A stretch of DNA of 60,707 nucleotides from contig JAMOQM010000027.1 in the NCBI GenBank assembly GCA_027064005.1, positions 1 to 60,707 of the forward strand, given 5' to 3'. A program made the position numbers and the translations under genes. Position 1 is the stretch's first letter, and the number at the start of each line of letters is the position of its first letter. Positions 1,687 through 52,940 of the stretch are shown piece after piece. The stretch is from Candidatus Cloacimonadota bacterium (GTDB lineage: Bacteria > Cloacimonadota > Cloacimonadia > Cloacimonadales > JAMOQM01). The notes under the pieces were generated by a model, which ran no database searches, was not told the DNA's origin, and saw only the letters and a list, made by a program, of their open reading frames with translations.

Positions 1687-1687
1687 T

Positions 1688-2812: not shown

Positions 2813-2814
2813 AT

Positions 2815-4713: not shown

Positions 4714-4716
4714 TTT

Positions 4717-5298: not shown

Positions 5299-5307
5299 TG
5301 AAAAATG

Positions 5308-5386
5308 CCTTATAACACACGTGCCCACAATAAGCAAGTAGTGAAGCAAGAAGATTCGTGGCACACTCCACTCATTATTGGTATAA
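5308..5386 (+). repeat. Copy A of a recurrent structured intergenic element (long form)
   Basis: Shared architecture with copies B, C and D: 5' box YTAACACA, a variable segment, CGTGGYA, the hairpin GTGG-loop-CCAC, then CATTAYWSS. The 5' CCTTATAA can pair with the 3' TTATTGG. Copies A and C share the insert AAGCAAG.AG..A.GCAAGA.GA. Confidence 0.6.
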
Positions 5387-5431
5387 AAAAGATATTAATA
5401 GCTACGGCTAAATAATCAAAAGGAGGAAAAT

Positions 5432-5551
5432 ATGGAATATTCAACACCTGAAGTAATTGCAGTAAGTCTTGATGATCAAGAAACAGTCGCTACTGCTTCG
5501 ATGTCTTGTGAAGATCCTGATGAAGATTGTAGTACATGGCGATGGAGTTAA
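5432..5551 (+). CDS. RiPP precursor peptide (39 aa, not in the ORF track): MEYSTPEVIAVSLDDQETVATASMSCEDPDEDCSTWRWS
   Basis: AGGAGG RBS at 5421-5426, then ATG at 5432. The acidic leader is followed by a C-terminal core with two Cys and a WRW motif. Its stop lies just before the radical-SAM/SPASM gene, and the maturase's listed ORF overlaps it. Confidence 0.65.
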   Translation: MEYSTPEVIAVSLDDQETVATASMSCEDPDEDCSTWRWS

Positions 5552-5556
5552 AAAAA

Positions 5557-7080
5557 ATGGGAGAAGAAAAATCTTCTCCCGTTTTAAATTATTCAAACAT
5601 ACTTGGAGAAATAAAAATGATGTTTAAATTAAGAAATGATTCTTTCATTCGGATTTTTGATAATTTTGGATATATTGTAAATCAACAAAAAAAGAATGAT
5701 AGAATTTATGATAAAATTGGAAGTATCTTCTTACAACAAATCTTGAGAGAACCACAAGAAATAATTACCGTTACAAAAAAAATTGTAGATAAATTTAACG
5801 ATGTTCCATTTAAGAAAGTTTATGCTGATTTTAAAAATTTTCTATCGGAGTTAGAGAGGAATTATTTTATATTGACTGCTAATTCTTTGAATGAACTTAA
5901 CAAAAAAGAAGCCAACCATGAAGAAAATATTGATAACTTCTCGAATAAGTCATTGATTGGATCCAAAAGTCCTAAACTTGAAAGCACTAAAACTTTCTTA
6001 AATAAGTATTTTTTTACAAATCCTACAGTTTTTGCTCTTCAAATAGAATTAACAACATTTTGTAATGAACATTGTTTGCATTGTTATATTCCGCAAAAAT
6101 ATAGAAATACATTACTCACTTATAAGAGTATTTGTGGTATCCTAGATCAAGCAAGAGATATGCAAACTCTTGCTGTATCCTTTTCAGGTGGCGAACCAAT
6201 GTCTCATCCTGATTTTATTAAGATATTAGAGTATGCGAGAGAAAAAGATTTTTCTATTACTATCTTAAGCAATTTGACATTATTAAATACAGAAATTTTA
6301 GAAACGTTGAAAAGAATTAATGTTAACCAAATACAAGTCTCATTATATTCAATGACACCAAAAATCCATGATTCTATTACAAAGATTGCGGGCTCTTTTA
6401 GTAAAACCTATAATGCTATTAAATCATTAATCAAAAATAATATTCCTCTTCGAATTAGCTGTCCATTAACAAAACTCAACTACATATCTTACAAAGAAGT
6501 ATTACAATTTGGGCAAAAAAACAATATTAAAGTTGATACAGATTTTACTATTATGGCAAGATCCGATTATAGTACAGACAACCTTCAATTCAGATTGACT
6601 TCAGAAGAAATTCAGACAGTATTACATGATATTTTTATTTATAACAGCAAATACACACAATCTTTACTGAAATACAAACCTTATTCTGTTGAAGAAAAGC
6701 AACAAGATAACGAACGGCCACTTTGTGGTGTTGGATTTAATAAAATTGCTATATCTAGTTCAGGAAATGTCATTCCTTGTGCAGGATGGCACAACCTTAA
6801 ACTAGGGCATATTGGTGATGATAAACTTTTAGATATTTGGACTAATTCTTTTCATTTAAATAATATTAGAAAGTTAAAACAAAAAGACTTTTCAGAATGC
6901 GTTAATTGTGAAGCAAAGAAATACTGTTCTATATGTCTATTAAGAAATTTTAATGAATATAATGGAGATATGTTAAAGTTTAATAAAATTCAGTGTGAGG
7001 TAGCATTTCAGACAATGAATACTGCAAAAGAATTATTTTTTGATAAAAATATTCATTTTGAAGAGCGACTGGACATGTAA
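5557..7080 (+). CDS. Radical-SAM/SPASM peptide maturase with an N-terminal PqqD-like RiPP-recognition (RRE) region
   Basis: Radical-SAM motif ELTTFCNEHCLHCY plus SFSGGEP. SPASM signature CGVGFNKIAISSSGNVIPC ... CVNCEAKKYCSIC ... CEVAF. The N-terminal FKLRNDSFIRIFDNFGYIVNQ is PqqD-like. The listed start at 5536 overlaps the precursor. ATG 5557 and ATG 5617 both follow a GGAG. Confidence 0.85.
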   Translation: MGEEKSSPVLNYSNILGEIKMMFKLRNDSFIRIFDNFGYIVNQQKKNDRIYDKIGSIFLQQILREPQEIITVTKKIVDKFNDVPFKKVYADFKNFLSELERNYFILTANSLNELNKKEANHEENIDNFSNKSLIGSKSPKLESTKTFLNKYFFTNPTVFALQIELTTFCNEHCLHCYIPQKYRNTLLTYKSICGILDQARDMQTLAVSFSGGEPMSHPDFIKILEYAREKDFSITILSNLTLLNTEILETLKRINVNQIQVSLYSMTPKIHDSITKIAGSFSKTYNAIKSLIKNNIPLRISCPLTKLNYISYKEVLQFGQKNNIKVDTDFTIMARSDYSTDNLQFRLTSEEIQTVLHDIFIYNSKYTQSLLKYKPYSVEEKQQDNERPLCGVGFNKIAISSSGNVIPCAGWHNLKLGHIGDDKLLDIWTNSFHLNNIRKLKQKDFSECVNCEAKKYCSICLLRNFNEYNGDMLKFNKIQCEVAFQTMNTAKELFFDKNIHFEERLDM

Positions 7081-7222: not shown

Positions 7223-10102
7223 ATGAAAAGAATTTACTTAAATACAATTATGGGGATACAATTTTTATTATTATGTTCGCAACTATTTTCTATCACATTT
7301 GCCGAGCGACAAATTGTTGACTTTCCTAATATTACAAATCCCAATTTCACTATTTCGTGTGATTTGGATAATAATGGATTTTCTGATGCAATTTCAGCTT
7401 CTCTTGATAATAAGCTTGTTTGGTTTCCTAGAACGAATAGCCAAATTGATGATAGTATTGAGGAAGAAATTGTAATTGCTGAACTTCCTGCGAATATGGG
7501 TGAAGTTACAGAAATTAAATGTGCTGATTTTGATGATGATGATGATTTGGATCTTTTAGTTGCTTCGGAATCTAAGTTATATTTAGTTGAAAATATAGAT
7601 AGTTGCGATAGTTTTGTTTTGCATTTGATACAATCATTTGAGACAGAAGTAAAGCAAAATTTTGATATTGGAGACTACAATTCCGATGGCTTAACAGATT
7701 TTATTTTAGCACGAGGAGAAGAAGAATCTACAATTAATATTTTTTTGAATACAAATAATTTAACTTTTTCACAAACACAAATTGCAGGAAATGGTATTCC
7801 GCTTGTAATATCTTATGATAAAGATAATGATGGAGATTTGGATTTGTTTGCAAATTGCAATGGATTCAATTATTTGGAAAATGTTGGTGGAGATTCGTTA
7901 TTTGTAATCACTGACACTCTTTCTACTGAAATGAAAAATGCTCAAATTATTGATTTTGACAATGATGGCAATATTGATATTGCCGGAATAATTAATGATG
8001 AAGAATTACATTTTGGCTGGATTGAAAACAATGATGATTCTTTCTCGGAATTTGAGATTTTATTTATTCCTGAACCATTTACTCAAATGAAAATTGTCAA
8101 TTCAGATTCAGATGATGATTACGAGATTTTCTTTATCAAAAATGTCGATTTATTTTATTATGACTACATTTCTGAAAATAATTATGAATTTGTTGATATT
8201 GGCATTTATACATCCACATTTGTTAATGACAGCTATGTTTCTTTTTTTGATTTTGCTGATTTTGATAATGATAACGATATTGACATTTTAATTTCATTTT
8301 CCGGAGGGGAATTTAATTTTGATCATAGATTTTTGGGTATTTGTGAAAATGTGAACGGTTTGTTTGGGAATGAGCATATTTTTAACCCTAGCTTTACACA
8401 ATCACCAATAGTTACATCTTTTGATATAGATTGTGATTCTGATTTGGATTTACTCATGGTAAATGGACAAAATATTTATTGGTCTAGAAAAAACGGTGCT
8501 GAATTTGACAAAGTCAAGATTTTGTATCATGCAGAAGATATTGTGAGATGGATTACGATAAGGGATATAAATTTTGACGGAAAATCTGATATTATTCTTA
8601 TGTTTGAAGATTATCCTTCAGATGGAGATTATAAAGTTTTGCTTAATAATTCTGATGGAGAAACAGATTTTTCTCTTCAACCTTTGAATAATATAGGAAT
8701 TGAGTATTCCAAAAGTTACGATTTCATTGATTTGGATCAGGATAATGACCTTGATTTTATCTGCATCAAAGGTGAAAACAACCGGCTTTATTGGAGTGAA
8801 AATCTTGGAAATTATACTTTTGGGAATTCAGAACTTTTATTACCGAATCAAGAACATATTGTTCGCTTTAAATTCACCGATATAGATAATGATGGAGATT
8901 TAGATTTATTAGCCGGAACCGAATTTAATTATAGTAACCGTTTTATATTTATTGCTACAAATAATAATTTAAATTTTACTATAACAACCAATTTTCCTGA
9001 ATTACCAGCCAGACCAAAAGCATTCTACTATGAGGATTTGGATAATGATGGAAATTATGAACTAATCGTTCATGTAGATGGATATAGTGAAATGCTTTAT
9101 ATCTATAAGAACATTTCTGATAATTTTCAAGATTATGAACTTTACATTTTGAATACGAACACAAACTGGGCTCATGGAATTAGGATGATAAGATTTGCAG
9201 ATTTGGATAATGATGGAGATAAAGATCTAATTGCAGGAAGAAGTTACTATGAAGAACAATATTCCGAATTAGCAATTTTGGTTTGGACAAATAATCAATC
9301 CGAATCATACTTTGATGAAAGCCATTTAGCTTATCCGCTTTATCATGAAAGAGCTATAGGTCTAAGGTATATAAATATTGCCGATTATAATAGCGATGGT
9401 AAACAAGATATTTTTTGCTATATTTATCGCCAATGGGATGAATTTTCTCAAAGTGAGTGGGATTATTATCTAAATACATCAACTTCTTTCCAAAACTTCC
9501 CAAGTTCGTTTGAATTGATGTTTCCACAAAATTATGCTGAAAATTTACCTACAAGACCCGAATTTATTTGGACAGCTTCAACAGATAACGATCCTAACGA
9601 CTTTGTCGAATATCAAATTGAAATTGCAACTGATAGCTTATTCAATGAAATTGTATTTTCCGAAAGTGAAATCAGTGATACACTTTTTATCATGCCAAAT
9701 AATTTGAGTACCAATACTCAGTATTTTTGGAGAGTAATCGCAGAAGATACTACAGGAAATCAAGCTATATCGGATTTTTTCACATTTTCAACAGGAAATG
9801 TTACTTCAAATTCTGAAGAAATAATTCTGACAAAAACAGAATTAAAAGGTAATTATCCAAATCCATTCAACCCAACTACAACAATAAAATTTTCAGTTAA
9901 AAAGAATGAGGTTGGAAAATTATCTATTTACAATGTAAAAGGGCAAATTGTAAAAACATTCGCTGAATTTTCCGAAGGTGACCATTCGGTTATTTGGAAT
10001 GGGAAGAATAATCATGGAGAAGAAGTTAGCTCCGGAATTTTCTTCTATAAACTTCAAACCAAATTTTATCAGAAAATAAAGAAAATGATTCTGTTGAAAT
10101 GA
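7223..10102 (+). CDS. Secreted FG-GAP/VCBS-repeat protein with an Fn3-like module and a T9SS C-terminal sorting domain
   Basis: AGGAGG RBS and a signal peptide. At least 12 Ca-binding-like DxDxDG repeats (ADFDDDDDLDLL, YDKDNDGDLDLF, TDIDNDGDLDLL and others). C-terminal GNYPNPFNPTTTIKF...GIFFYKL...KKMILLK. Confidence 0.85.
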   Translation: MKRIYLNTIMGIQFLLLCSQLFSITFAERQIVDFPNITNPNFTISCDLDNNGFSDAISASLDNKLVWFPRTNSQIDDSIEEEIVIAELPANMGEVTEIKCADFDDDDDLDLLVASESKLYLVENIDSCDSFVLHLIQSFETEVKQNFDIGDYNSDGLTDFILARGEEESTINIFLNTNNLTFSQTQIAGNGIPLVISYDKDNDGDLDLFANCNGFNYLENVGGDSLFVITDTLSTEMKNAQIIDFDNDGNIDIAGIINDEELHFGWIENNDDSFSEFEILFIPEPFTQMKIVNSDSDDDYEIFFIKNVDLFYYDYISENNYEFVDIGIYTSTFVNDSYVSFFDFADFDNDNDIDILISFSGGEFNFDHRFLGICENVNGLFGNEHIFNPSFTQSPIVTSFDIDCDSDLDLLMVNGQNIYWSRKNGAEFDKVKILYHAEDIVRWITIRDINFDGKSDIILMFEDYPSDGDYKVLLNNSDGETDFSLQPLNNIGIEYSKSYDFIDLDQDNDLDFICIKGENNRLYWSENLGNYTFGNSELLLPNQEHIVRFKFTDIDNDGDLDLLAGTEFNYSNRFIFIATNNNLNFTITTNFPELPARPKAFYYEDLDNDGNYELIVHVDGYSEMLYIYKNISDNFQDYELYILNTNTNWAHGIRMIRFADLDNDGDKDLIAGRSYYEEQYSELAILVWTNNQSESYFDESHLAYPLYHERAIGLRYINIADYNSDGKQDIFCYIYRQWDEFSQSEWDYYLNTSTSFQNFPSSFELMFPQNYAENLPTRPEFIWTASTDNDPNDFVEYQIEIATDSLFNEIVFSESEISDTLFIMPNNLSTNTQYFWRVIAEDTTGNQAISDFFTFSTGNVTSNSEEIILTKTELKGNYPNPFNPTTTIKFSVKKNEVGKLSIYNVKGQIVKTFAEFSEGDHSVIWNGKNNHGEEVSSGIFFYKLQTKFYQKIKKMILLK

Positions 10103-12963: not shown

Positions 12964-13788
12964 ATGGAAAAGTTTATTGGAAAGTTAGAGAAAATTGGTT
13001 TTTCAAAGAACGAATCGATAGTTTATTGTAACCTGCTGAGAAATCAGTGTTTTACGGCTACTGAGATTGCTAAAATATCAAATATTGGTAGATCGAGAGT
13101 TTATGAGATATTAGCTTCTTTGGTTAGTAAAGGAGTTGTTTTTGAAAGACAAGGAAAAGTTAGAAAATACGAAGCAATTAATCCTGAAAATGCTTTTACT
13201 TCTATTATCGATTCAGAAAAAAAACGCATTGAGATGATGTCAAAACTTAAAGATGAATTAATCCCGTATTTTCAAAATAAAAAGGAAGATCCTTCGCCAT
13301 TGGATTTTATCGAAGTTTATAGTACCGGGAAAACCATCTTTAATCGTTATGAAGAGCTTGAATACGCTTCACAAGAATTTGTCTATTCATTTTGTAAAGC
13401 ACCTTATGTAATGGATACTGACTCTGTTTATATAAATGATGCCCAAATGGAATCTATGAGCCGAGGTGTAAAATATAAATCAATTTATGAGCCCGGTGAA
13501 AGAGATTTTAGAACTTTTATTAAACAAATGGAATATGATATTGAAATGGGTGAGGAAATTAGGATTATGGAAACTTTGCCGATTAAAATGCATATTTATG
13601 ACGAGAAAGCAGTGATGTTTTCCATGATAAATAAAATCAATCCGGAAATGAATCTTACCTATATGGTTGTTCAACATTCCGATTTGGCAAGAACACTTTT
13701 GGGAACTTTCGAATATTATTGGGAGAAAGCAATGAAATTTGAAGATTACTTAAAAAAAATAAAAAAAAAGAATAAATCGGTTTCTTAA
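12964..13788 (+). CDS. TrmB-family transcriptional regulator
   Basis: The N-terminal winged helix LEKIGFSKNESIVYCNLL...TATEIAKISNIGRSRVYEILASLVSKGVV is typical of TrmB. It has a TrmB-type C-terminal extension. Confidence 0.75.
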   Translation: MEKFIGKLEKIGFSKNESIVYCNLLRNQCFTATEIAKISNIGRSRVYEILASLVSKGVVFERQGKVRKYEAINPENAFTSIIDSEKKRIEMMSKLKDELIPYFQNKKEDPSPLDFIEVYSTGKTIFNRYEELEYASQEFVYSFCKAPYVMDTDSVYINDAQMESMSRGVKYKSIYEPGERDFRTFIKQMEYDIEMGEEIRIMETLPIKMHIYDEKAVMFSMINKINPEMNLTYMVVQHSDLARTLLGTFEYYWEKAMKFEDYLKKIKKKNKSVS

Positions 13789-13834
13789 AATTGGACTGGT
13801 TATTGCATAAAGAAATAAAAAGTTGGAGGAATAA

Positions 13835-15550
13835 TTGAGAAAAATTTCACTATTACTAATAATGCTTATCAGTATGTCATTATTTGCCGGAGAACAAAAG
13901 AAAGCTGAAGTAAAAGTTACAGCTCAAATTGTCGGAAATAAAATTGTCGCAAGCTACCAAATTCCTGAGGGAATGCACATTACGCTTCAAAAAGATTATT
14001 TATACGTTGATGCTGATAGTGTTGACTGGTTAAAACTGGAACCTACAATTTATCCAAAAGGCGTTAAAGATGCTGATGGTGATATAGTTTATCATGGTCA
14101 AATGAAATTGACCAGACAGTTTACATTCCTAAAAAAATATACAGATTCCAGACCATTAAAAATATTTGCCGGTTTCCAAGCTTGTCTTGATTCCGGAACT
14201 TGTATGTTTCCTGATGAAAAAGAATTTACTTTGAATATCAAATATGATAAAAAATATGATATCAATAATGTCCCTGCGGAAAATGAGAAACCACTTCCAG
14301 CCAAAAAAGCTCCAATTAGTGCTGTTCTAAAATATTTATTAATGGCATTTCTCGGTGGTATAATTCTTAATGTGATGCCATGCGTTTTACCAGTGTTATC
14401 AATTAAAGCAATGAGCTTGGTTAAACAAAGTCATCAAGATAAAAAAGAAATTCTGAAAGGTTCTTTGATGTACACTGCCGGAATTATAGTTTCATTTATT
14501 GTAATGGCATCAGTTGTTATTTTCCTAAAAATTTCCGGTGAAATGGTGGGATGGGGATTCCAATTCCAATCACCCGGATTTGTAATGGCTCTATTAATTA
14601 TGATTTTTGTGTTTGCTCTTTCAATGTTTGACGTCTTAATTTTTAATGCTCCCGGAATGAATAAAGCGACTCAAGCTTCGCAAAAACAGGGACATTGGGG
14701 TTCTTTTTTAAGTGGGATTTTTGCGGTATTATTAGCCACTCCTTGTACTGCGCCGATGTTGGGAGCTGCTTTAGGTTTTGCATTTACCCAACCACCTTTG
14801 ATGATTTTAGCGATTTTTATTTTGATAGGTTTAGGTTTGGCATTGCCATTTTTATTAATTGGTTTCTGGCCGGCTGCAATAAAAATTATTCCTCGTCCGG
14901 GCGAATGGATGAATGTTTTCAAAGAAGTAATGGGATTTTTATTATTTGCTACCGCTTTATTCCTTTTAAGAACCTTATATTTCTTAGTTGGTGGAGATGG
15001 GACTTTTAATATTTTATGGTTTTTGCTTATTTTATCTTTTTCTGCTTGGATGTTCGGACGTTGGACTCGCCCGCATATCCCTCATAAAAAACAATGGGTA
15101 ATGGCAATTTTGGCTGTTTTAATTTCAGTATTTGCCGGGATGTTCTTATTGAGATTTAACGATTCTTCTTCAAATAAAACCGAAATGGTTTCTTCAACGA
15201 AAGGCAATTGGGGAGTTTTTTCTCCTGAAAAAGTTCAGGAATTAAGAGATGCCGGGAAACCTGTGTTTATTGATTTTGGTGCCGAATGGTGTATGACTTG
15301 TAAAACAAACGAAAAAGTTGTGCTTTATACTGATGAAATTCAAAAAGCTTTTAGAGATCATAATGTTGTCTTGTTGAGAGGAGATAATACAAAACGTGAT
15401 CCGATTATAAACGAGTGGTTACGTAAATTCAAAAGAGCCGGAGTTCCTTTATATATAATGTATATTCCCGGTAAAGACGAACCGGAAGTTCTACCTGAGT
15501 TGATTACCAAAGATATGGTTCTTAATATGCTCAAGAAATTGGATAAATAG
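13835..15550 (+). CDS. dsbD: Thiol:disulfide interchange protein DsbD (membrane electron transporter with a C-terminal thioredoxin domain)
   Basis: Signal peptide plus an N-terminal periplasmic domain. The TM core has the two conserved Cys (NVMPCVLPVLS and LATPCTAPMLG). The C-terminal Trx fold is FGAEWCMTCKTNE. TTG start with a GGAGG RBS. Confidence 0.85.
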   Translation: MRKISLLLIMLISMSLFAGEQKKAEVKVTAQIVGNKIVASYQIPEGMHITLQKDYLYVDADSVDWLKLEPTIYPKGVKDADGDIVYHGQMKLTRQFTFLKKYTDSRPLKIFAGFQACLDSGTCMFPDEKEFTLNIKYDKKYDINNVPAENEKPLPAKKAPISAVLKYLLMAFLGGIILNVMPCVLPVLSIKAMSLVKQSHQDKKEILKGSLMYTAGIIVSFIVMASVVIFLKISGEMVGWGFQFQSPGFVMALLIMIFVFALSMFDVLIFNAPGMNKATQASQKQGHWGSFLSGIFAVLLATPCTAPMLGAALGFAFTQPPLMILAIFILIGLGLALPFLLIGFWPAAIKIIPRPGEWMNVFKEVMGFLLFATALFLLRTLYFLVGGDGTFNILWFLLILSFSAWMFGRWTRPHIPHKKQWVMAILAVLISVFAGMFLLRFNDSSSNKTEMVSSTKGNWGVFSPEKVQELRDAGKPVFIDFGAEWCMTCKTNEKVVLYTDEIQKAFRDHNVVLLRGDNTKRDPIINEWLRKFKRAGVPLYIMYIPGKDEPEVLPELITKDMVLNMLKKLDK

Positions 15551-15558
15551 AGGATTTT

Positions 15559-16623
15559 ATGAAAAGACTTTTAGCTTTATTTGCGGTTACAATAGTATTA
15601 TTTCTTACTTCTTGTGATCGGTTTGAACATACTTTCGAGGTAAAGAATTCTCAAGATTTGGAAGAATTTAAGACAAATTTTAAAGATAATTTGGCAAATG
15701 CTTATAACGGTTCTTTGGAACAATTAAAAGCTATGTTCCGCGATGATTATCAAAATGATGAGTTAGATAAAGACGGGATGATCTCATTTCTTACTGAAAG
15801 TTCTATTGATTGTCTTATTCGCTTGGAAGCGGATTCAATAAATTTTGTTTCCGACGTAGAATTTACTTATATCTTAAAGAAGATAACGATTGATACTCAG
15901 GTAGTTATCGAAGACACATTACTTACAGATTACATTATAAATGAAAACGGCAACTTTAAATTTTATGGAAATCAATATGGAAATCAAAAAGTTATGGTTG
16001 AATTATTTACTGCAACTTGGTGTCCAAATTGTCCTTATTCTGAAGATGCTCTTCATGAACTGCAATTAAAATATTCCTCAAAGTTGATTTATATGGAATA
16101 TCATGCTTATGATGAATTAATGCCGTCACCTGTTTTGGATGCATATAATTTTTATAATGCTACAGCCTATCCTTCGGCATTTTTCCAAGGTGAAGATAGT
16201 ATTGAAGATGGCCATCCGGGAATTTCCGAAGAAATGGATACCATAATTTCTCCTTATTATAATACTTCTGAAAACGTCAGTATTTTGATTAAAAAATTTA
16301 CGCAGAATGACGAAAATTTAAGTGCTGAAGTAAAATATGATTCTGATTTGGATACAAATAATCTTTATTTAAAATTTGTTGTTATTGATAAATTAAATTC
16401 AGATTATCATAATATGTCAGGAGAAGATTTGCATAATGTTGCGATATCCGGCGGGAAAATTGCTTTGGCTCAAAACTCCGGTACTGTTAATTTGGATTTG
16501 GGAAATAAATCCGATATTCCCGATGATGCTTCTTTGATAGTTTGGATTCAAAAAATGGGATCGTCTTATGATTCCAATAGTAAAGTTTATAATGTTATGG
16601 AAAAAATGGTTTTAAGGAGATAG
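15559..16623 (+). CDS. Thioredoxin-like lipoprotein (CPNC motif). It is the Cys paralogue of the N-terminus of the 19370..21604 product.
   Basis: Lipobox LFLTSC. The motif VELFTATWCPNCPYSE aligns with AELFTQSW(TGA)SYCPQA of the downstream gene. Confidence 0.7.
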   Translation: MKRLLALFAVTIVLFLTSCDRFEHTFEVKNSQDLEEFKTNFKDNLANAYNGSLEQLKAMFRDDYQNDELDKDGMISFLTESSIDCLIRLEADSINFVSDVEFTYILKKITIDTQVVIEDTLLTDYIINENGNFKFYGNQYGNQKVMVELFTATWCPNCPYSEDALHELQLKYSSKLIYMEYHAYDELMPSPVLDAYNFYNATAYPSAFFQGEDSIEDGHPGISEEMDTIISPYYNTSENVSILIKKFTQNDENLSAEVKYDSDLDTNNLYLKFVVIDKLNSDYHNMSGEDLHNVAISGGKIALAQNSGTVNLDLGNKSDIPDDASLIVWIQKMGSSYDSNSKVYNVMEKMVLRR

Positions 16624-16626
16624 AAA

Positions 16627-17118
16627 ATGAATTTTAGAAAGATTATACTTGTAGCAGGGTTATTTATATTATTGATAAATTTGAGTGCGATTGACAAAGC
16701 TCCGGAATTCAAATTAAAAAATATGAAAGGGGAATGGGTTAATCTCTCACAAAAAATTGATAAACATTTTGTCATTCTTGATTTTTGGGCAAGCTTTTGT
16801 GCTCCTTGCAAAAAAGAACTTCCCGGTTTGAATAAAATTGATAAAAAACATAATGATATCAATGTACTTGCTGTTTGTACCGATAGACCGAGAACTCAAA
16901 ATAAGGCAAAAGCTTTTATCAAATCAAACAGATTTTCTTTTGAGACATTGTTTGATTCCAGAGGGAAAGTTCGCAAATTATTTAACGTTGTTGATATTCC
17001 TCATACTGTAGTTATTGCTCCAAATGGCGAAATTGTTACAGTTCATACAGGTTATAAACGTGGCGATGAAAAACATCTTCTTCTCGAAATAGAGAAATGG
17101 AAAAAAGCACACAAATAG
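16627..17118 (+). CDS. TlpA/ResA-like periplasmic thiol-disulfide oxidoreductase
   Basis: Signal peptide. DFWASFCAPCKKELP (AhpC/TSA-Redoxin family). Confidence 0.85.
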   Translation: MNFRKIILVAGLFILLINLSAIDKAPEFKLKNMKGEWVNLSQKIDKHFVILDFWASFCAPCKKELPGLNKIDKKHNDINVLAVCTDRPRTQNKAKAFIKSNRFSFETLFDSRGKVRKLFNVVDIPHTVVIAPNGEIVTVHTGYKRGDEKHLLLEIEKWKKAHK

Positions 17119-17129
17119 AGAGGAATTTG

Positions 17130-18602
17130 ATGAAAAAATATATTTTTAACGCGTTGTTTTTACTCTTATTGACTAACGTATTTTCACTTTATGCGGAATC
17201 AGTAAATGTTAGCGGGTTAAATGAAACGCAATTTATCGATAGAGATTTGGGAGACAAATATAAATCGTATTTTTATGATAAATTATCTCTTCAATTGCAA
17301 TATTCAAAATTATCAGCCGGATTAAAATACGATTATTTCCATCCTAAATTTGATAGATTTTTAGATGTTGATCAAGCCGGAAATGAAGAAAACGATAATT
17401 ATTTTGATGACTATTTTCTTCAATATGAATCTGACAATCTTTTTGTGAAAGGTGGTTATTACGAAGCTTCAATTGGTTCCGGAATGATTCTTCATAATTA
17501 TTATGATAAGGATTTTGACAATGACACGCGTCTTCAAGGCGGTTATTTTCAATTTACAAATGATAATATAACTTTTCAAACTTTCGGCGGAATTATGGAT
17601 AATGACTTTGACGAAGATAAAAATGATTTTCTCGGTGCGGTTGATTTTGAATACAACTTGTTCGGCGATTTAAGATTAGCTTCCGCTTTTGTTTTGGATA
17701 AGATCAATCAAGAAAAAGATGTTACAGATAATAAAACAGATAAATATTTTTTTAGAAAAATTTACTCCGGACGAGTTTCATGGAGTTCTGAAAAATTTGA
17801 ATTCAAATCTGAATACGCTAAATCTCAAATAAGTGATCAAATAAATTCTAAATTTAAAGACGGTCATGCTTTATACGCAACCGGAACTTTTTATATTGGG
17901 AAATTTACGTTTTTAACTTCTTATAAAAATTATTGGAATTTTAATTATAAGCTTTCCGATTTACCTACTGTTAACCATTCCGGTGAACCGATTAATGATA
18001 GTTGGGAAAGTGGTAAAGACGAACAAGGTTTGATGGGAGAACTGCACTTTGTCCCTGATGATTCACATTCGTTTTTGGTAAATTATGCCGAAGGTTGGTC
18101 AAAAAATTATAAAATCAGACAAGAAGATTTATATGCCGAATATTCGCATGATTTTGAATCTTCAACTTTGAAATTAATTTATGCCGATCTGGAAGAATTG
18201 AGTGATGTCTCGACAAATTGGATAAAAGAAACTACTCCGGAAATTGATTATGATTTTCAAATCGGAAATTTTCCGATCTTAATTGAATCATTTTATGAGA
18301 TTGTTAAACACGATAATCTTAGCGGAGAAGTTACTCATTATGAGCCGAAAATTCAAACTGATATCGGATATAATAATTATTCCTTTTCTCTTACAGTGGA
18401 AAACCAATATGGTGATAAAACCGATAAAGATGATGGGAAATATTGGATTGGTGGAGAATTTACTGTTTCTATCGATGCTATTCATTCCGATGTCCGATTA
18501 TTTGCCGGAAAAGAAAAAGGCGGAAAAGTTTGCAGAAATGGTGTTTGCCGATACCAATCAGAATTTCAAGGTGTTAAGTTAGAAATAAATACAACATTCT
18601 AA
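17130..18602 (+). CDS. Predicted outer-membrane beta-barrel protein
   Basis: Signal peptide MKKYIFNALFLLLLTNVFSLYA. Alternating amphipathic strands rich in Y/F/G/D. C-terminal ...KLEINTTF with a terminal aromatic residue. The listed 17097 start overlaps the upstream gene. Confidence 0.6.
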   Translation: MKKYIFNALFLLLLTNVFSLYAESVNVSGLNETQFIDRDLGDKYKSYFYDKLSLQLQYSKLSAGLKYDYFHPKFDRFLDVDQAGNEENDNYFDDYFLQYESDNLFVKGGYYEASIGSGMILHNYYDKDFDNDTRLQGGYFQFTNDNITFQTFGGIMDNDFDEDKNDFLGAVDFEYNLFGDLRLASAFVLDKINQEKDVTDNKTDKYFFRKIYSGRVSWSSEKFEFKSEYAKSQISDQINSKFKDGHALYATGTFYIGKFTFLTSYKNYWNFNYKLSDLPTVNHSGEPINDSWESGKDEQGLMGELHFVPDDSHSFLVNYAEGWSKNYKIRQEDLYAEYSHDFESSTLKLIYADLEELSDVSTNWIKETTPEIDYDFQIGNFPILIESFYEIVKHDNLSGEVTHYEPKIQTDIGYNNYSFSLTVENQYGDKTDKDDGKYWIGGEFTVSIDAIHSDVRLFAGKEKGGKVCRNGVCRYQSEFQGVKLEINTTF

Positions 18603-18617
18603 AAAAAGGAGAGAGTT

Positions 18618-19361
18618 ATGAAAAAATATCTATTAATTACGGTCTTAATCGTTTTTGCAACTGTTTTATTTGCAGATTTGCAAGTTGATTTACCGTTTGG
18701 TCACAACCAAACCGGACAGGCTTGGGATGGTACAGATTATAATTATCAAGGTGAAGCTTTTCATGTAACCAATTTAGGTGCAACAGATACATTCACAGTT
18801 CAAATTGTAAGTACAAATATTCCTGAAAATTGGAATCTTGTTTGGTGTCATGCAATGGGAGACAATCAAGGATGTCATTCTTCTCACATGCCGGCATGGA
18901 GTTTTGAATTCCCTCAAAATGCAACAATTGATTTTGATATTCAAGTATTAGGTATTGATCAAGCTGCCGGATTTGATTATTATTTCGAGATTAATGCTCC
19001 ATCTTTAACTGAACCTGAAATCATTAATTTTCATTTTCAAACAGCTGATGCAACCCCAAATGCTGATGATGTAAATATTAATCAAAGTATTAGTCTTAAA
19101 AACTATCCAAATCCGTTTAATCCTGAAACAACTATCAGTTATACAATTTCTAAAGATTTGAATCTTATCCCAAGTCTAAGTATTTATAATCTTCTTGGTC
19201 AGAAAATTAAAACTTTTAGTAATTTAAAAGTAAATAATGGTAAAGGAAATGTAGTTTGGAATGGCGTTGACTCAAATAATAAAAAAGTTAGCAGTGGAAT
19301 ATATTTCTACAAAATGAATGTGAAAAATTCACCAATCAAAAAAATGATCTTAATGAAATAG
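18618..19361 (+). CDS. Small secreted protein with a T9SS C-terminal sorting domain
   Basis: GGAG RBS and a signal peptide. C-terminal KNYPNPFNPETTISY...GIYFYKM...KKMILMK. The N-terminal domain is unrecognised and contains WCHAMGDNQGCH. Confidence 0.75.
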   Translation: MKKYLLITVLIVFATVLFADLQVDLPFGHNQTGQAWDGTDYNYQGEAFHVTNLGATDTFTVQIVSTNIPENWNLVWCHAMGDNQGCHSSHMPAWSFEFPQNATIDFDIQVLGIDQAAGFDYYFEINAPSLTEPEIINFHFQTADATPNADDVNINQSISLKNYPNPFNPETTISYTISKDLNLIPSLSIYNLLGQKIKTFSNLKVNNGKGNVVWNGVDSNNKKVSSGIYFYKMNVKNSPIKKMILMK

Positions 19362-19369
19362 GAGGAAAA

Positions 19370-21604
19370 ATGAGAAAGATTTTTATTTTTGTAAGTATGC
19401 TTATTATGCTTACGGCAATGTTAAGTGCAACACAAATTAAAGTAGTTGCGGAACTTTTTACGCAATCTTGGTGAAGTTACTGTCCACAAGCTCGGGCTGG
19501 GCTTTTACAAATGGCAAATACTTATCCTGATGATTTTATTCCAATGTTCTGGGAAGGCGATACGGATAACGCAAGTCCCGGATATTCTCCTCGTGGTGGA
19601 ATGTACGGAGTAAGCGGTATTCCTCATGTACAATTCCAAGGATCAACACCGGATATAGGTGGTGGAAATACTTTCCCACGTTATCAAAGCAAATATAATC
19701 AAATTATCGGAACGGATGCTCCTATTGCTATCACAAATATGGCAATGAACTTGAATGCTCAAGGTCAACTTGTTGTCAGCGGTGATGTTGAAGTTACCGG
19801 TGCTTTATCCGGTACAAACAATAAAGTTGTTTTTTTATTAACTCGTCATATAACAACCGAATATTTCTGTACGGTTGCAGCTTATCAATATGATGATTTT
19901 AATTTAGTTAATGTTGGTGATACAGGAACTTTTTCACACGCTTTGGATATCAATTCCGATTGGAGTTTAAGTTCTTTAAAAGCGGTTATGTTGGTTCAAA
20001 GCTATGGTGGAAATCATAAAATTTATCAAGCCGAAAAAACAGGTTTTAGCGGAACGGTTGCTTTATTTTCATCAAATATTTCAAGTGGTCCTGCTAATTT
20101 AGATGTACAATTTAACAGTATGGCTTTACCGGAAGGAAATATTGCTTCTTATGAATGGGATTTGGATGGTGATGGTAATTGGGATAGCACGGAAGAAAAT
20201 CCTTCTTTCACTTATACTGAAGCCGGTGATTATGATATAACGCTTCATATCGTATCTAATTCAGGCGAAGAAGATACAAGAAATGTTCCCGGTTACATTC
20301 ACGTTGCAGAATCTTCAAACGTTTCCGGAAATGTAAACGGTACTTGGGTTAATACAAACAATCCATACGTAATTACAGGTGATTTAACAGTTGCTCCCGG
20401 ATTCCATTTAAATATCGAACCCGGTGTTGAAATCTTAGTTGCTGATGGAGCGAAATTGGAGATTAACGGATTAATTAACGCCGGTACTTTAGGTGAAGAT
20501 CCGGTTGTTTTTCATAGTGAAACAGGTTGGGAAGGTTTGAGAATTAAAGATAGTTCTGAAAATAATCACCTTTATAATTGTGTTATTAAAAATGCCACAA
20601 TATCAGCTTTACAAATTGAAAATTCGGTAGTTGATGTATCGGGCTGTGAGATTGCGGAAAACAATACAACTTCCAAAGCTGCTGTAGAATTTACAACTGC
20701 CAATATGGTTACTTTTTCAAAAAACTGGGTGCATAACAATACTTCCCTAAATAATTTTGCAGGCATTGTTTGTACAAATAGTACTCCAATCATTATCAAT
20801 AACGTAATTGTAAATAATACCGGTAATCTTGGAATTCTCGCTTTTAAAAATGAAAGTGATGTTACATTTAACAACAATACAATTGCGAAAAACTGGGTTA
20901 CAAGTGCAACTTCCGGTGCGAATGTATTTATCTTCAATTCAGATGTTACTTCTCTCAACAATATTTTGTATAATAGTGGAGTTGAGGTTAATTTGATTAG
21001 TGGCTCATTTACCGCTAATTATTGTGATATTGCAGGTGGTGCTGATGGGGAAGGAAATATAGATGCAAATCCAATGTTTAGCAATCCAACTGCTACTCCG
21101 GGTGCAACAACCGATGCAACTAATGCGGAATGGTTTTTACTTGAAGGATCGCCTTGTATAGATACTGCAAGTCCTTCCAATATTTACAATGATCCTGAAG
21201 ATCCAACTAATGCCGGTTATGCATTATTCCCTGCTATGGGTACAACAGCCGGTGATATGGGTGCTTTTGGTGGAGCTGCTCCGGCAGGATGGGTTGGTAA
21301 TGATGATCCTTCGACAAATGCTCCTGTAAATAATTTCACTGTAAAAAATTACCCAAATCCTTTCAATCCTCAAACAACAATTTCTTTTACTTTGAAAAAT
21401 AATAGCGACGTTAGCGTTGATATCTATAATATCAAAGGGCAAATTGTAAGAAATTTAGCTAAGAAATCAATGAAAGCCGGAGAACATAATATTGTTTGGA
21501 ATGGTAAAGATGATAATAATAAGATTCAAGCCAGCGGAATTTATTTTGTTAGAATAAATTCAGGCAACGAATCAAGTATTCATAAAATGGCTATGCTTAA
21601 ATAG
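19370..21604 (+). CDS. Candidate selenoprotein: signal peptide, thioredoxin-like UxxC domain, PKD domain, right-handed beta-helix repeats and a T9SS sorting domain (744 codons, with TGA 19472-19474 read as Sec)
   Basis: GGAGG at 19361-19365 and ATG 19370 are in the same frame as the listed 19511 ORF. The only interruption is a single TGA. The motif W-U-SYC aligns to W-C-PNC of the paralogue at 15559. PKD: YEWDLDGDGNWDSTEENPSFTYTEAGDYDITL. CTD: KNYPNPFNPQTTISF...GIYFVRI. Confidence 0.65.
19488..19504 (+). promoter_or_regulatory. Candidate bacterial SECIS hairpin
   Basis: AAGCUC-GGGCU-GGGCUU: a 6-bp stem including one G-U pair, with a G-rich 5-nt loop. It starts 13 nt after the in-frame UGA. 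Confidence 0.4.
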
Positions 21605-21620: not shown

Positions 21621-21648
21621 AAAATCCCTCAATTGAGGGATTTTTTTT
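21621..21648 (+). terminator. Rho-independent terminator
   Basis: AAAATCCCTC-AATT-GAGGGATTTT followed by a T-run. Confidence 0.75.
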
Positions 21649-21881
21649 GCTAAAATATTCATAAATAGTAAAAAAAATAATTGTAATTTTTTGAAATGGC
21701 TTTGGAATAACAACAGAAAAATCAAGGAAAATTTATTTTTGAAAAACCAAATTGGTTTTTTTATTTTGCTAACTTCAAACTTTTCAAAGCTGTTCCATCA
21801 AATTTTGAGATTAATTTAATAAAGTATTTGACGCAACAAAGGGAATTTTTAGTTTATACAAAAAAAATAGGAAGTTAAAAA

Positions 21882-26191: not shown

Positions 26192-27163
26192 CTACTTATT
26201 GTTTTCGAATTTCCATTCCAATGGTTTGGAGGTTTTAAAAACGTGAGATTTTAAATGATTAATAGCTGTTGAAATATCATAATTATCATCAATAATAACT
26301 TTATTATATTTCTGATATTTTTCTTTATTTTTAATCCAAACATTTTTTTGGATAAAGATTACTTTTCCGGATATTTTTCCTTCATTTTGGAAAACCAAAT
26401 CGACTTTGCCGTTGTAGTTATTTTTTAAGGAATCTCGTAATGCCATAAAATATTTCACATCACTTTTGTCGCAAACAATAGTTAAACCTTGTTTTGGGGC
26501 AAAAACATCCAAATATTGAGCGTTAACTTCGGTTTTGGTTTGGCGATGAGAAATGTAGCGATAACCGGTTTGAATACCTACAAATAAGAAATAAATCCCA
26601 ATCATAACCGACAACCATTTTGCCACACCTTGCATTCTTTTAATTTTGGAAATTCCACCCACAAAAATTAGGGGAATTAAATAAATTGTGGTTCCGCCAA
26701 AAAATCCGATAAACAATAAAGCTCCTCCGGAAGCTCCTCCGATACTGATTGCTTCGGAAATTGCCAGTAAGAAGGAAGGGCAGAAATTTATGCCTGTAAT
26801 AAATCCTAATAAAAAGGCATTTTGAGTGAATTTTGAGAATTTAGGGATTACGCACATTTTTGATTTTTGATGAGTTCGATAAGCTGTAACCAAGAGATAA
26901 GTTGAAATCATAATGTAGGCAATTGCAGTGAAAATGTCTCTGTTAATGCTTGAGATGGTTGAACCTGCCAAACCGGCGATGGCACCAAAAGCAGTGTAAG
27001 CGATGAATCTTCCGGCTGAAATTTCCATCACTTTTAAAAAACTATTCCAAATCGATCTTTTTTCCGACAACAAAAAAGGAATGTAGATTGGAGAACAAGT
27101 TGTTAAACAAGTTAATCCGGTGGCGATTCCTAATCCGAAACCTTCTGATAATATTTTAAACAT
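26192..27163 (-). CDS. Polytopic membrane protein of the DsbD_2/TauE-like type with an N-terminal CxxxC and a ~115-aa soluble C-terminal domain
   Basis: GLGIATGLTCLTTCSPIYIPFLL, then multiple glycine-rich TM segments. The C-terminal hydrophilic domain has no recognised motif. Confidence 0.5.
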   Translation of the reverse strand: MFKILSEGFGLGIATGLTCLTTCSPIYIPFLLSEKRSIWNSFLKVMEISAGRFIAYTAFGAIAGLAGSTISSINRDIFTAIAYIMISTYLLVTAYRTHQKSKMCVIPKFSKFTQNAFLLGFITGINFCPSFLLAISEAISIGGASGGALLFIGFFGGTTIYLIPLIFVGGISKIKRMQGVAKWLSVMIGIYFLFVGIQTGYRYISHRQTKTEVNAQYLDVFAPKQGLTIVCDKSDVKYFMALRDSLKNNYNGKVDLVFQNEGKISGKVIFIQKNVWIKNKEKYQKYNKVIIDDNYDISTAINHLKSHVFKTSKPLEWKFENNK

Positions 27164-27265
27164 TTTTCCTCGATATTTTATTTATTTGGCTGATTATAAG
27201 CCATGACAAATTTATGAATTAGTCCAAACGGACAAGAACATTCTCCACAACCAACGCATTTGAAT

Positions 27266-28105
27266 TTATAAATCAGGTAATTTATTTTTTTTTATTGTTT
27301 TAGATAGAGATGTTTTTTTAGGAATATTTTTTGTTTGATTTTCGGAAACGCTATCTTTTGCCGTGTCTTTTTCCAAAGAAGATTTTTCTTTTTTGATGAT
27401 TGGAATTGGCTTTTTAATTTGAGCTTTTTTATCTGAAAACGGTTCTGTTTTTTCAATGATTTTTTGCGAATGAGAAATTGCTTTTGTTGGACAGACATTT
27501 TCACAAATACCGCATTCAATACATTTATCAACATCGATAACCGCTTTTCCGTTCACCATTTCAATAGCATTCACCGGACATTTTTGGACACAAATTTTAC
27601 ACGCAATACATTTTTTGGGATTCACGGAATATATTTTCTTTGAAATTTCTTTCACTTTTTTTAGGATGGATTTTTGCGTTTTGGGTTCGGATTTTTTCAT
27701 AACTTCTTTTTTGGAAGTTTGAGAAACTGACGTTTGTAAAACCTTAGTTTGTAAAACGGATTTTTGATTTTCGGAAACGCTATTTTTTGCCGTGTCTTTT
27801 TCTAAAGAGGATTTTTCTTTAATTGATTCTTTTGCCGAAGTTATATCTTTTTTGTCAAATAATGAAATTGCGTGCGTTGGACAAACTTTTACGCATTCAC
27901 CGCAATTATTACATTTATCAATATCAATAACCGCTTTTCCATTCACCATTTCGATTGCATTATTCGGACAAACAGTTACGCAAAGATTGCAACCGATACA
28001 TTTATTTGCAGAAACAGAATATGTTTTTGTTGAGGATAATGCCATTATTCCAATGGAAAACAGCACGAGAGTGAGAGAAAATATTTTAATAAATTTATTC
28101 ATCAA
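27266..28105 (-). CDS. Polyferredoxin with an N-terminal Sec-type signal or anchor. It holds two tandem modules, each with 2x[4Fe-4S] motifs plus a low-complexity linker.
   Basis: CIGCNLCVTVCP...CNNCGECVKVCP and CIACKICVQKCP...CIECGICENVCP. The linkers repeat (KSSLEKDTAK.SVSENQ). At DNA level, 27335-27392 is about equal to 27764-27821. There is no twin-arginine motif in MMNKFIKIFSLTLVLFSIGIMALS. Confidence 0.8.
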   Translation of the reverse strand: MMNKFIKIFSLTLVLFSIGIMALSSTKTYSVSANKCIGCNLCVTVCPNNAIEMVNGKAVIDIDKCNNCGECVKVCPTHAISLFDKKDITSAKESIKEKSSLEKDTAKNSVSENQKSVLQTKVLQTSVSQTSKKEVMKKSEPKTQKSILKKVKEISKKIYSVNPKKCIACKICVQKCPVNAIEMVNGKAVIDVDKCIECGICENVCPTKAISHSQKIIEKTEPFSDKKAQIKKPIPIIKKEKSSLEKDTAKDSVSENQTKNIPKKTSLSKTIKKNKLPDL

Positions 28106-28830
28106 CTATTCCTTTTATTTTTCTTTTGGATTGGGCAACTATCTAAACATTCGCCACATCTGATACATTCTACAATATCAAAAGGATTTTTAGAATCAAC
28201 TTCGATATCTAATGAACAATGTGATTTGCAAATTCCACAATGAACGCATTTTGACGGAGAAAGAGATTTGGGGAATTTTCCCTGACTTATTTTTAACATC
28301 AACCATTGGGTAATATTCATCAAAGCTGCATACGGACAGAAAGTTGTGCAGAAAAATCTTTTCCAAAAAATACTGATGAGTGTGATAATTGAAAGAATGG
28401 TAAATCCAAGGTTGTAATATGGAATTTTTCCTGCTAAAAATTCAACCGGACAGACATTTTGGTAAATAATTTTTCCACTAAAATATGACCCGATAATAAT
28501 TGAGAATAAAATAATATATTTAAGAAAGAAAAGAAATTTAGGATGCTTCATTTTTGCTTTGAAGCCTATAAAATCTTGGATTGTACCGATTGGACAAACA
28601 TAAGAACAAAAATATCTTCCGAAGAAAGCTGTTATAATTAGGATTAATATCGACAAAATAAATCCAATTGATAAAAAGAAATATGATGAATGTAAGTTGC
28701 TGAATAATACGCAATTAACATTGTTGGGGCAAATAAGATGAGTTTTTGAATTTCCTAAAAAAATGAAAATCAGAATAGTCGCACTTAAAAACAATAATTG
28801 TGAATATAGTCTTAATTTATTTTTTTTCAA
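28102..28830 (-). CDS. NapH/MauN-like integral-membrane 4Fe-4S binding protein
   Basis: TM segments with CPIGTIQDF and FCPYAAL motifs. C-terminal CVHCGICKSHC and CIRCGECLDSCP. Confidence 0.7.
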   Translation of the reverse strand: MKKNKLRLYSQLLFLSATILIFIFLGNSKTHLICPNNVNCVLFSNLHSSYFFLSIGFILSILILIITAFFGRYFCSYVCPIGTIQDFIGFKAKMKHPKFLFFLKYIILFSIIIGSYFSGKIIYQNVCPVEFLAGKIPYYNLGFTILSIITLISIFWKRFFCTTFCPYAALMNITQWLMLKISQGKFPKSLSPSKCVHCGICKSHCSLDIEVDSKNPFDIVECIRCGECLDSCPIQKKNKRNS

Positions 28831-52838: not shown

Positions 52839-52930
52839 CACTCCGAGTCTTTATCTTTAAGGAGAATTCTATGAGGAAAGACCGATGGGCTCAAAAGGAA
52901 ACTTTTGAACCTCCCACCTTTGGAAAGGAG
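52839..52930 (+). ncRNA. Candidate Moco/Tuco (molybdenum or tungsten cofactor) riboswitch in the aor leader
   Basis: CACUCCGAG ... GAGGAAAGAC ... GGGCUC, the hairpin CAAAAG-GAAA-CUUUUG (GNRA loop), then CCUCCCAC and AAAGGAG (SD). These are the blocks I recall as conserved in the Moco RNA motif. Not verified with a covariance model. Confidence 0.5.
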
Positions 52931-52940
52931 ATAAAAAAAA

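Follow-up and report, generated by a model that had tools for sequence, protein, structure and literature searches.

Why an inner-membrane importer of electrons should share an operon with outer-membrane and surface proteins is the question raised by positions 12964-21604 of a contig from a Candidatus Cloacimonadota bacterium (GenBank assembly GCA_027064005.1, contig JAMOQM010000027.1; the 60,707 nucleotides analysed are referred to as the window). The seven genes of this region encode a TrmB-family regulator, the thiol:disulfide electron transporter DsbD, a thioredoxin-fold lipoprotein, a TlpA-type thioredoxin, an outer-membrane beta-barrel of the family DUF6029, and two proteins carrying the C-terminal domain (CTD) of type IX secretion system (T9SS) cargo, the larger of which is a predicted selenoprotein. 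The original prediction, made from the letters of the window alone, was that these genes form a relay carrying reductant from the cytoplasm to the cell surface. Our comparison with related loci shows a conserved four-gene core attended by variable cargo, which probably functions as an extracytoplasmic thiol-reducing module serving the cysteine hairpin of the barrel and a set of proteins resembling HBP35, a surface thioredoxin of Porphyromonas gingivalis.

The seven co-directional open reading frames (ORFs) were confirmed on the forward strand at the coordinates first proposed for them (Table 1). Their spacing is tight, with intergenic gaps in gene order of 46, 8, 3, 11, 15 and 8 nt, every one of which contains a Shine-Dalgarno-like sequence. 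Terminators between the genes would have counted against a single unit; no terminator-like site was present in any gap, such sites being rarer than in shuffled sequence (4 versus 5.1), and an intrinsic terminator follows the last gene. A scan for sigma-70 promoters was uninformative, returning 60 sites versus 47 expected. The seven genes are therefore one tight operon-like unit. The absence of ccm and res genes, which set this unit apart in the original prediction, also held: when protein families were scanned in the 37 window ORFs of at least 150 aa (all but the paralogue at 38324-43621), no cytochrome-maturation family was matched except for DsbD-type membrane domains.

The conservation of this arrangement was assessed across related genomes. 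Close homologues of the barrel with a source name numbered 94, all from Cloacimonadota save one labelled Armatimonadetes, which is probably mis-binned, and all 80 loci from species-representative genomes were from Cloacimonadota metagenome-assembled genomes. The seven window proteins were compared with all loci using tblastn, with the denominators of the resulting counts being the loci with enough flanking sequence. In 53 of the 57 loci with enough upstream flank, the genes for DsbD, the lipoprotein, TlpA and the barrel followed one another in this order on a single strand, extending to barrels of only 28-30% identity. Three of the four exceptions retained all four genes, either rearranged or spaced by insertions, and the fourth (L078) was without the lipoprotein; every other Cloacimonadota locus with enough flank has an HBP35-like lipoprotein next to TlpA and the barrel or between them. 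The gene tables of three diverged loci gave the same order, running from DsbD through an unannotated protein of ~360 aa, TlpA and DUF6029 to T9SS cargo. The flanks of this core are less constant. A TrmB homologue was found immediately 5' of DsbD in 8 of 52 related loci, and the regulator is a lineage-specific accessory outside the conserved core. Downstream, a profile of the cargo domain identified 80 paralogues in total 3' of Cloacimonadota barrels, with at least one such HBP35-like protein in 43 of the 57 loci having at least 3 kb of downstream flank, and none in the other 14. Hence the synteny anticipated for all seven genes held for four of them, but not for TrmB or the T9SS cargo, and the cluster is a conserved four-gene core with variable T9SS cargo, rather than a fixed seven-gene set. 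Loss of synteny among relatives, which was to have refuted the original prediction, was not observed for this core. Chance adjacency is rejected by these counts, as it is by those for distant TlpA-DUF6029 pairs (56 of 59 loci).

These distant pairs emerged from a search beyond the phylum. An exhaustive profile search for DUF6029 recovered 1420 representative proteins, and a metagenome scan was seeded on the barrel motif only (9 distant barrels; 80 loci fetched, GC content 38-69%). A TlpA-like gene was directly 5' of the barrel in 52 of the 59 distant loci with enough flank, and four further loci had the order TlpA, HBP35-like lipoprotein, barrel, such that TlpA preceded DUF6029 in 56 altogether. 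The window TlpA shares the C-terminal signature HTGYKxGDE with the distant DUF6029-linked TlpA proteins, and belongs with them to a DUF6029-linked subfamily. Consequently, the TlpA-DUF6029 pair is an ancient core found well beyond Cloacimonadota, and the link between barrel and redox protein is both real and older than the window by itself could reveal. To this core the Cloacimonadota added DsbD and the lipoprotein paralogue. Some of the distant HBP35-like proteins are lipoproteins of 860-913 aa, with matches to Omp28 and DUF1223 and the motif ELFTAxWCGNC. The neighbours of distant barrels also include T9SS cargo of unrelated types, although the enrichment of T9SS CTD genes around these loci was weak and dependent on the profile used, and we make no claim for it. 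In one such locus (L118) an FG-GAP T9SS cargo gene is directly upstream of the TlpA-DUF6029 pair; in another (L110) a Fer4_5 protein is encoded just 3' of the barrel.

The barrel of the window matches DUF6029 (Pfam PF19494) at 81.6 bits, relative to a cut-off of 27, and its translation likely begins at M12, which is preceded by a Shine-Dalgarno sequence. An AlphaFold2 model, generated from 59 sequences (confidence score, pLDDT, 91.9), was assigned 24 wall strands by DSSP; its turns on the periplasmic side are short, a plug domain is absent, and the protein ends in a beta-signal (...TTF) with a terminal phenylalanine. The 24-strand usher barrels FimD and PapC headed its Foldseek matches (TMq 0.5-0.58), followed by BtuB, AlgE and MtrB (6r2q_B, TMq 0.49). 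A literature search on DUF6029 returned a single paper, in which the family is treated as a Wzi-like barrel on the basis of HHpred (PMC9603273). The protein has only two cysteines, C479 and C484 in GGKVCRNGVC, which form a staple at the tip of the hairpin between the last two strands (DSSP strands 476-480 and 483-487, pLDDT >90), and strand parity in the model suggests that this hairpin is an extracellular loop. It might be taken for a special station of this cluster, but it is invariant as GG-x-C-x4-C in the 59 Cloacimonadota sequences and in 27 distant DUF6029 proteins. A cluster-specific relay station is therefore rejected, the cysteine pair being common to every DUF6029 protein examined; instead, the hairpin is a hallmark of the family.

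The other three members of the core have the motifs expected of a thiol-disulfide pathway. DsbD matches DsbD_TM (PF02683) at 81.8 bits (cut-off 27.1) and Thioredoxin_7 (PF13899) at 71.6 bits, while its N-terminal alpha domain, with the motif QAC-LDSGT-C-MFP, scores 22.3 bits against DsbD_N (PF11412), just under the cut-off of 25. It contains exactly six cysteines at the canonical positions, these being C117/C123 in the alpha domain, C183 (within MPCVLP) and C304 (within TPCTAP) in the beta domain, and C486-MT-C489 in the gamma domain. The TlpA-like protein has a hydrophobic N-terminus and the motif C58-AP-C61, and matches AhpC-TSA (PF00578) at 79 bits and Redoxin (PF08534) at 62 bits. Hence the redox assignments first made for DsbD, the CPNC lipoprotein and the CAPC TlpA were right.

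Two types of DsbD share the same operon position among Cloacimonadota loci. The window-like type, with the gamma motif FIDFGAEWCMTCK and tblastn scores of 500-670 bits (the window, L001, L006, L007, L012 and L014), contrasts with a second type with the gamma motif FIDFWATWCKNCL and scores of 100-180 bits (L002, L008-L010, L013, L015-L017, L020, L024-L028, L031 and L037), a distribution suggesting that the DsbD gene was replaced while its linkage was retained. The window also contains two other DsbD-family genes, both on the reverse strand. One, at 26192-27163, encodes a DsbD_2-family membrane protein beside a pair of 4Fe-4S proteins, of which one belongs to the membrane-type Fer4_5 family; together (26192-28830) they make up a putative second set for transmembrane electron transfer, lying 5 kb away from the operon. 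The other, at 56901-57608, is CcdA-like with a DsbD_TM domain only, and neighbours genes for an ArsP-type permease (58613-59938) and a CMD/AhpD-like protein (55481-56047).

The lipoprotein connects this pathway to HBP35. Across Cloacimonadota loci, the signal peptides of its orthologues end at a conserved cysteine, with a strict lipobox pattern matched in approximately two-thirds, and each has one CxxC; in an alignment of 27 sequences C19, C155, C158 and the cis-proline P205 were invariant. The AlphaFold2 model (pLDDT 78) comprises an NTF2/cystatin-like domain, a thioredoxin fold and a beta-sandwich, and was built on a shallow alignment, because word-indexed homologue searches gave only 7, then 17 proteins. 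The top Foldseek match of this model was HBP35 (5y1a; E 1.4e-9 over 240 columns, root-mean-square deviation 4.0), which led the other matches by five orders of magnitude, and sequence profiles likewise matched 5y1a. Against NCBIfam the lipoprotein scored 30 bits with NF045500 (cut-off 200) and 31 bits with NF033782 (cut-off 150). The start of the mature protein, C-D-R-F-E/D-H (15613-15630), is near-invariant, though it falls within a stretch modelled with low confidence that is probably a flexible tether; a signal for sorting or export is one possible role for it, and docking as a peptide is another.

A related domain is carried by the surface-sorted selenoprotein. This large protein is encoded across one in-frame TGA, with a signal peptide 5' of this codon and a thioredoxin-like domain 3' of it, resulting in the motif U35-SY-C38 (U denoting selenocysteine, Sec). 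Its C-terminal parts are a PKD domain, a right-handed Beta_helix and a Por_Secre_tail, with the CTD scoring 43 bits against TIGR04183 (cut-off 23) and 40.4 bits against PF18962 (cut-off 27); the beta-helix region is without a close solved relative, the PKD domain alone being matched. The N-terminal domain aligns with HBP35 over the redox motif (VVLEVFTAEWCGYCP versus KVVAELFTQSWUSYCP) and matched 5y1a by phmmer at E 0.016. Its assignment to the thioredoxin fold of the HBP35/Omp28 type is, as judged from profile and phmmer comparisons, genuine, and the thioredoxin-like N-terminal domain originally proposed for this T9SS cargo, for which an ordinary hydrolase or adhesin was the stated alternative, is thereby upheld. 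The lipoprotein and selenoprotein modules matched one another by BLASTP at E 1e-7, and a profile of the Sec domain matched the lipoprotein at E 4e-30. Furthermore, a 218-aa profile of the cargo domain matched the lipoprotein in essentially every lipoprotein-bearing Cloacimonadota locus (E ~1e-24 to 1e-43); the Cys and Sec modules are therefore paralogous, as had been predicted.

The small CTD protein, by contrast with its neighbour, lacks a thioredoxin domain. It scored 27.9 bits against TIGR04183 (cut-off 23) and 25.6 bits against PF18962 (cut-off 27), and its N-terminal domain (aa 42-150) has a single cysteine pair, C77/C86. Other Cloacimonadota barrels are followed by ~440-aa HBP35-like T9SS proteins, whose third domain is its homologue, and BLASTP aligned aa 42-247 with one such protein, of 448 aa at locus L004, at E 1e-20. 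The small protein looks like a truncated relative of these proteins.

Insertion of selenocysteine at the in-frame TGA is well supported by comparison with relatives. Across the 80 downstream paralogues, the first redox position is encoded by TGA in 11 genes from 10 species and by Cys in 52, with the motif lost in 17. At locus L002, two cargo genes are each split into a 33-aa ORF and a long ORF, the signature of uncalled selenoproteins. A global reassignment of TGA is rejected, as it serves as the ordinary stop of 7 of 38 window ORFs. All five Sec genes that were folded have a hairpin of 5-7 bp beginning 13 nt after the UGA, with loops of GGGCU or CGUGC, resembling a bacterial selenocysteine insertion sequence (SECIS). 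However, a 7-bp hairpin with the loop GGUCU is kept at the same position in Cys orthologues (L023, L029, L030, L032 and L043), and the SECIS hairpin is therefore not counted as independent proof of Sec. Nor was it significant by itself against shuffled sequences (z-score 0.19), with Ala-Arg-Ala codons favouring such a structure, and RNAalifold found no structure common to the five Sec sites, the 3' arm shifting register. In the Cys orthologues, it may be either the fossil SECIS of a recent Sec-to-Cys change, or a by-product of Ala-Arg-Ser/Ala codons. No tRNA was present in the window, nor any sel gene among its scanned ORFs; a Cloacimonetes-type tRNA-Sec has been documented (PMC5330540). Literature searches combining Omp28 with selenoprotein, and Cloacimonas with selenocysteine, found nothing.

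Several known systems share parts of this arrangement. HBP35 is a surface-anchored T9SS cargo protein that reduces insulin faster than E. coli thioredoxin, its activity needing C48 and C51, and that binds hemin, being required when hemin is limiting (PMC2907840). Like the proteins described here, it combines an N-terminal thioredoxin fold containing (V/L)FT-x-x-W-C-x-Y-C-P with a beta-sandwich, and has a CTD and surface display; in structure the lipoprotein matched it best, and in sequence the selenoprotein domain matched it too, with CxxC-dependent activity shown for HBP35 only. It differs in that one paralogue here is a lipoprotein without a CTD, whereas in the other Sec replaces the first Cys and PKD and beta-helix domains are fused on. 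Furthermore, both share their operon here with genes for DsbD, TlpA and a DUF6029 barrel, and no such linkage of hbp35 was found in the literature searched. The pathways from DsbD or CcdA to TlpA, ResA or CcmG, exemplified by E. coli DsbD, Bradyrhizobium TlpA and Bacillus CcdA-ResA/StoA, have the same catalytic cysteines in the membrane transporter, encoded side by side with a membrane-anchored or periplasmic CxxC thioredoxin. However, clients for cytochrome c maturation, Sco/Cox or sporulation are missing from the window operon, which scores under the equivalog cut-offs, and its conserved partners are instead an outer-membrane barrel and HBP35-like proteins. In the CcdA-Etrx1/2-MsrAB2 system of Streptococcus pneumoniae, a CcdA/DsbD-type transporter likewise feeds surface-exposed thioredoxin-family lipoproteins, which protect the outside of the cell or serve it (PMC3914529); but this gram-positive bacterium has no outer membrane to cross, and its methionine sulfoxide reductase client is absent here. 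The NCBIfam models NF045500 ('Omp28-related selenoprotein') and NF033782 ('Omp28 family outer membrane lipoprotein') describe domains of this type, with Sec as the first residue of the redox motif, although at 67 bits against the NF045500 cut-off of 200, the window selenoprotein is not a member by the NCBI criterion. Finally, and by analogy only, the MtrCAB conduit and the LptDE plug-and-barrel resemble this locus in having a very large barrel encoded beside a periplasmic or lipoprotein redox partner and a surface redox protein, but they are unrelated in sequence, and the carriers here would be thiols or a selenol rather than haem.

The original view that no described system has this composition overlooks HBP35, a surface thioredoxin exported by the T9SS and the structural prototype for the two modules, and the existing NCBIfam model of an Omp28-related selenoprotein. 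DsbD, TlpA, HBP35/Omp28-like proteins, T9SS cargo and an Omp28-type selenoprotein are parts already known; what is new, and undescribed in the literature searched, is their combination, above all the near-obligate pairing of TlpA with DUF6029. This gives the DUF6029 family its first consistent functional context, in the form of near-obligate coupling to TlpA-type proteins across phyla and an invariant cysteine hairpin. It also puts on record a family of thioredoxin domains, with Sec and Cys members, that are sorted to the surface.

How such a module might work can be outlined from these components. By homology, and with its six catalytic cysteines present, DsbD would move reducing equivalents from cytoplasmic thioredoxin over the inner membrane. 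Gene linkage, and the intact CxxC and cis-proline motifs, suggest that it would pass them to the TlpA-type thioredoxin, the HBP35-like lipoprotein, or both. These would act together with the plug-less barrel, whose only cysteines are those of the hairpin staple, while the T9SS cargo would show HBP35-like thioredoxin domains on the surface, here with Sec as the attacking residue, as HBP35 does in P. gingivalis. The most likely clients for the reductant would be the barrel hairpin and the HBP35-like modules, and the likely role of the system, in an anaerobe that degrades proteins, would be to reduce disulfides or oxidised substrates at the outer membrane or outside it.

Several observations weigh against this thiol-reducing module. 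The case for electron transfer rests wholly on homology and gene linkage, and several NCBIfam scores stay under their curated cut-offs: the whole DsbD protein reached 190 bits against NF001419 (cut-off 330), and the TlpA-like protein, at 80 bits for StoA (cut-off 210), 79 for ResA (170) and 49 for TlpA (230), fails equivalog-level identity to ResA, StoA, TlpA or DsbE. Similarly, neither the lipoprotein nor the selenoprotein matched Pfam Omp28 (PF11551) at E <= 0.01, and the selenoprotein aligned with model positions 28-265 of NF045500 at E 1.7e-18, under the cut-off noted above. The lipoprotein has Asp at position +2, which in E. coli causes lipoproteins to be retained in the inner membrane. 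With 17 of the 80 downstream paralogues lacking CxxC, not all cargo can be redox-active. Beyond Cloacimonadota, DsbD was undetected beside DUF6029 barrels, and an HBP35-like domain was nearby in only 14 of 30 loci. Nevertheless, we consider the module the probable explanation of the locus.

A bolder form of this explanation extends the path of the reductant across the outer membrane. By analogy with MtrA in MtrB, TlpA or the lipoprotein might enter the lumen of the barrel from the periplasm and exchange with the cysteine hairpin at the outer rim, which would in turn recharge the Cys and Sec domains of surface HBP35-like proteins, forming a 'porin-thioredoxin' conduit. Being a special case of the thiol-reducing module, its likelihood overlaps with that of the module, as do those of the other readings considered here, and we regard it as unlikely while allowing it a real chance. 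It would account for a barrel of usher or MtrB size without a plug of its own, for the conserved DUF6029 motifs, including the hairpin, in loops placed outside by strand parity, which suggest a site in or over the lumen, for the coupling of TlpA to DUF6029 in nearly every locus, and for the surface thioredoxin-like cargo in the operons of 43 of 57 loci. It would also provide the surface HBP35 proteins with a reductant, theirs being not known, and none of DsbD, TlpA or CcdA being linked to HBP35 in the literature searched. Yet the hairpin staple may have a structural role only, thioredoxin-like cargo is missing from the surroundings of half the distant DUF6029 loci, an anoxic and sulfide-rich habitat may itself keep surface thiols reduced, and to our knowledge no thiol-disulfide relay across any outer membrane has a precedent. 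The universality of the TlpA-DUF6029 pairing and of the hairpin, when HBP35-like partners are not universal, could alternatively mean that the barrel is itself the client, with TlpA, fed by DsbD in Cloacimonadota, setting or maintaining the redox state of the cysteine pair for assembly or gating. The barrel would then move a non-redox substrate, such as polysaccharide or peptides, in keeping with the HHpred likeness of DUF6029 to Wzi-type polysaccharide barrels (PMC9603273) and with AlgE among its Foldseek matches, and the HBP35-like genes would be co-regulated neighbours. However, a dedicated reductase for a single CX4C staple would be unusual, the lipoprotein adjoins TlpA or the barrel in all but one Cloacimonadota locus and recurs in other phyla, and no polysaccharide-synthesis or outer-membrane polysaccharide export (OPX) genes were seen in the annotated loci; we give this explanation a slight chance.

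The cargo might, conversely, be serviced before it leaves the periplasm, with DsbD, TlpA and the lipoprotein keeping either its active-site Cys and Sec residues or its structural cysteines reduced or correctly paired, and no recharging taking place outside. The T9SS exports folded proteins from the periplasm, a selenenylsulfide should form readily and would need a reductase, and T9SS cargo genes, some of them without thioredoxin domains, adjoin TlpA-DUF6029 in distant loci. But such pre-export quality control leaves the obligatory outer-membrane barrel unexplained, and the enrichment of CTD genes around DUF6029 is weak; in our view this reading is improbable. The ability of HBP35 to bind hemin, and its requirement under hemin limitation (PMC2907840), raise the further idea, again by analogy, of nutrient capture, in which a surface HBP35-like protein would bind haem, a metal, selenium or sulfur, the large and open barrel would import it, and the periplasmic thioredoxins would reduce it. 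With no TonB box, plug domain, ABC importer or haem genes in the conserved core, this is highly improbable.

The thiol-reducing module would offer a concrete, testable answer to the open question of how P. gingivalis HBP35 and other T9SS proteins of the surface with thioredoxin-like domains come by their electrons. That DUF6029 and its obligate TlpA partners form the outer-membrane station of a thiol/selenol-disulfide relay to T9SS-displayed HBP35-like domains is a doubtful proposition, but were reductant to cross the outer membrane in this way, it would represent a new class of envelope redox conduit, the protein-thiol counterpart of porin-cytochrome conduits. Were the relay false, the locus would still define a new client set for the DsbD/TlpA pathway, in a phylum not known to have cultured isolates for genetic study.

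Table 1. Features of the operon-like unit, in window coordinates
Feature	Position	Strand	Basis
TrmB-family winged-helix regulator	12964-13788	+	PF01978, 71 bits
DsbD, full-length, inner-membrane thiol:disulfide electron transporter with alpha, beta and gamma domains	13835-15550	+	Pfam; six Cys
HBP35/Omp28-like thioredoxin-fold lipoprotein	15559-16623	+	Lipobox C19; C155-PN-C158; Foldseek to 5y1a
Periplasmic TlpA/ResA-type thioredoxin, C58-AP-C61	16627-17118	+	AhpC-TSA, 79 bits
DUF6029 outer-membrane beta-barrel	17130-18602 (ORF opens at 17097)	+	PF19494; AlphaFold2 model
Codons of barrel C479-RNGV-C484	18531-18548	+	Only two barrel cysteines; hairpin tip
Small T9SS-CTD protein	18618-19361	+	TIGR04183, 27.9 bits
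Predicted T9SS-sorted selenoprotein: signal peptide, thioredoxin-like domain, PKD, beta-helix, CTD	19370-21604	+	Pfam; NCBIfam; translation across TGA
Predicted UGA selenocysteine codon (W-U-SYC)	19472-19474	+	Sec/Cys alignment among relatives
bSECIS-like hairpin, 6-bp stem, loop GGGCU	19488-19504	+	Starts 13 nt past UGA
Intrinsic terminator, 10-bp palindromic stem and T-run	21621-21652	+	Closes operon after last gene

Other genes of the window also include T9SS cargo. Upstream of the operon, an FG-GAP repeat T9SS cargo protein of 959 aa is encoded at 7223-10102, and downstream are two tandem ORFs of the same length, ~1765 aa each (32411-37711 and 38324-43621), the first of which has CarboxypepD_reg, Cleaved_Adhesin (a gingipain-type adhesin domain) and a T9SS CTD. 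At the start of the window (307-7080), and unrelated to the operon, are genes for a PIN-domain protein, a Cdc48-type AAA_2 ATPase, and a pair of radical-SAM (Fer4_12) and radical-SAM/SPASM proteins. Towards its end, a Moco/tungsten riboswitch (RF01055, 65.8 bits; 52829-52946) is immediately 5' of an aldehyde:ferredoxin oxidoreductase gene (52941-54761), from which the genes for FdhD, ThiF and TauE are divergent.

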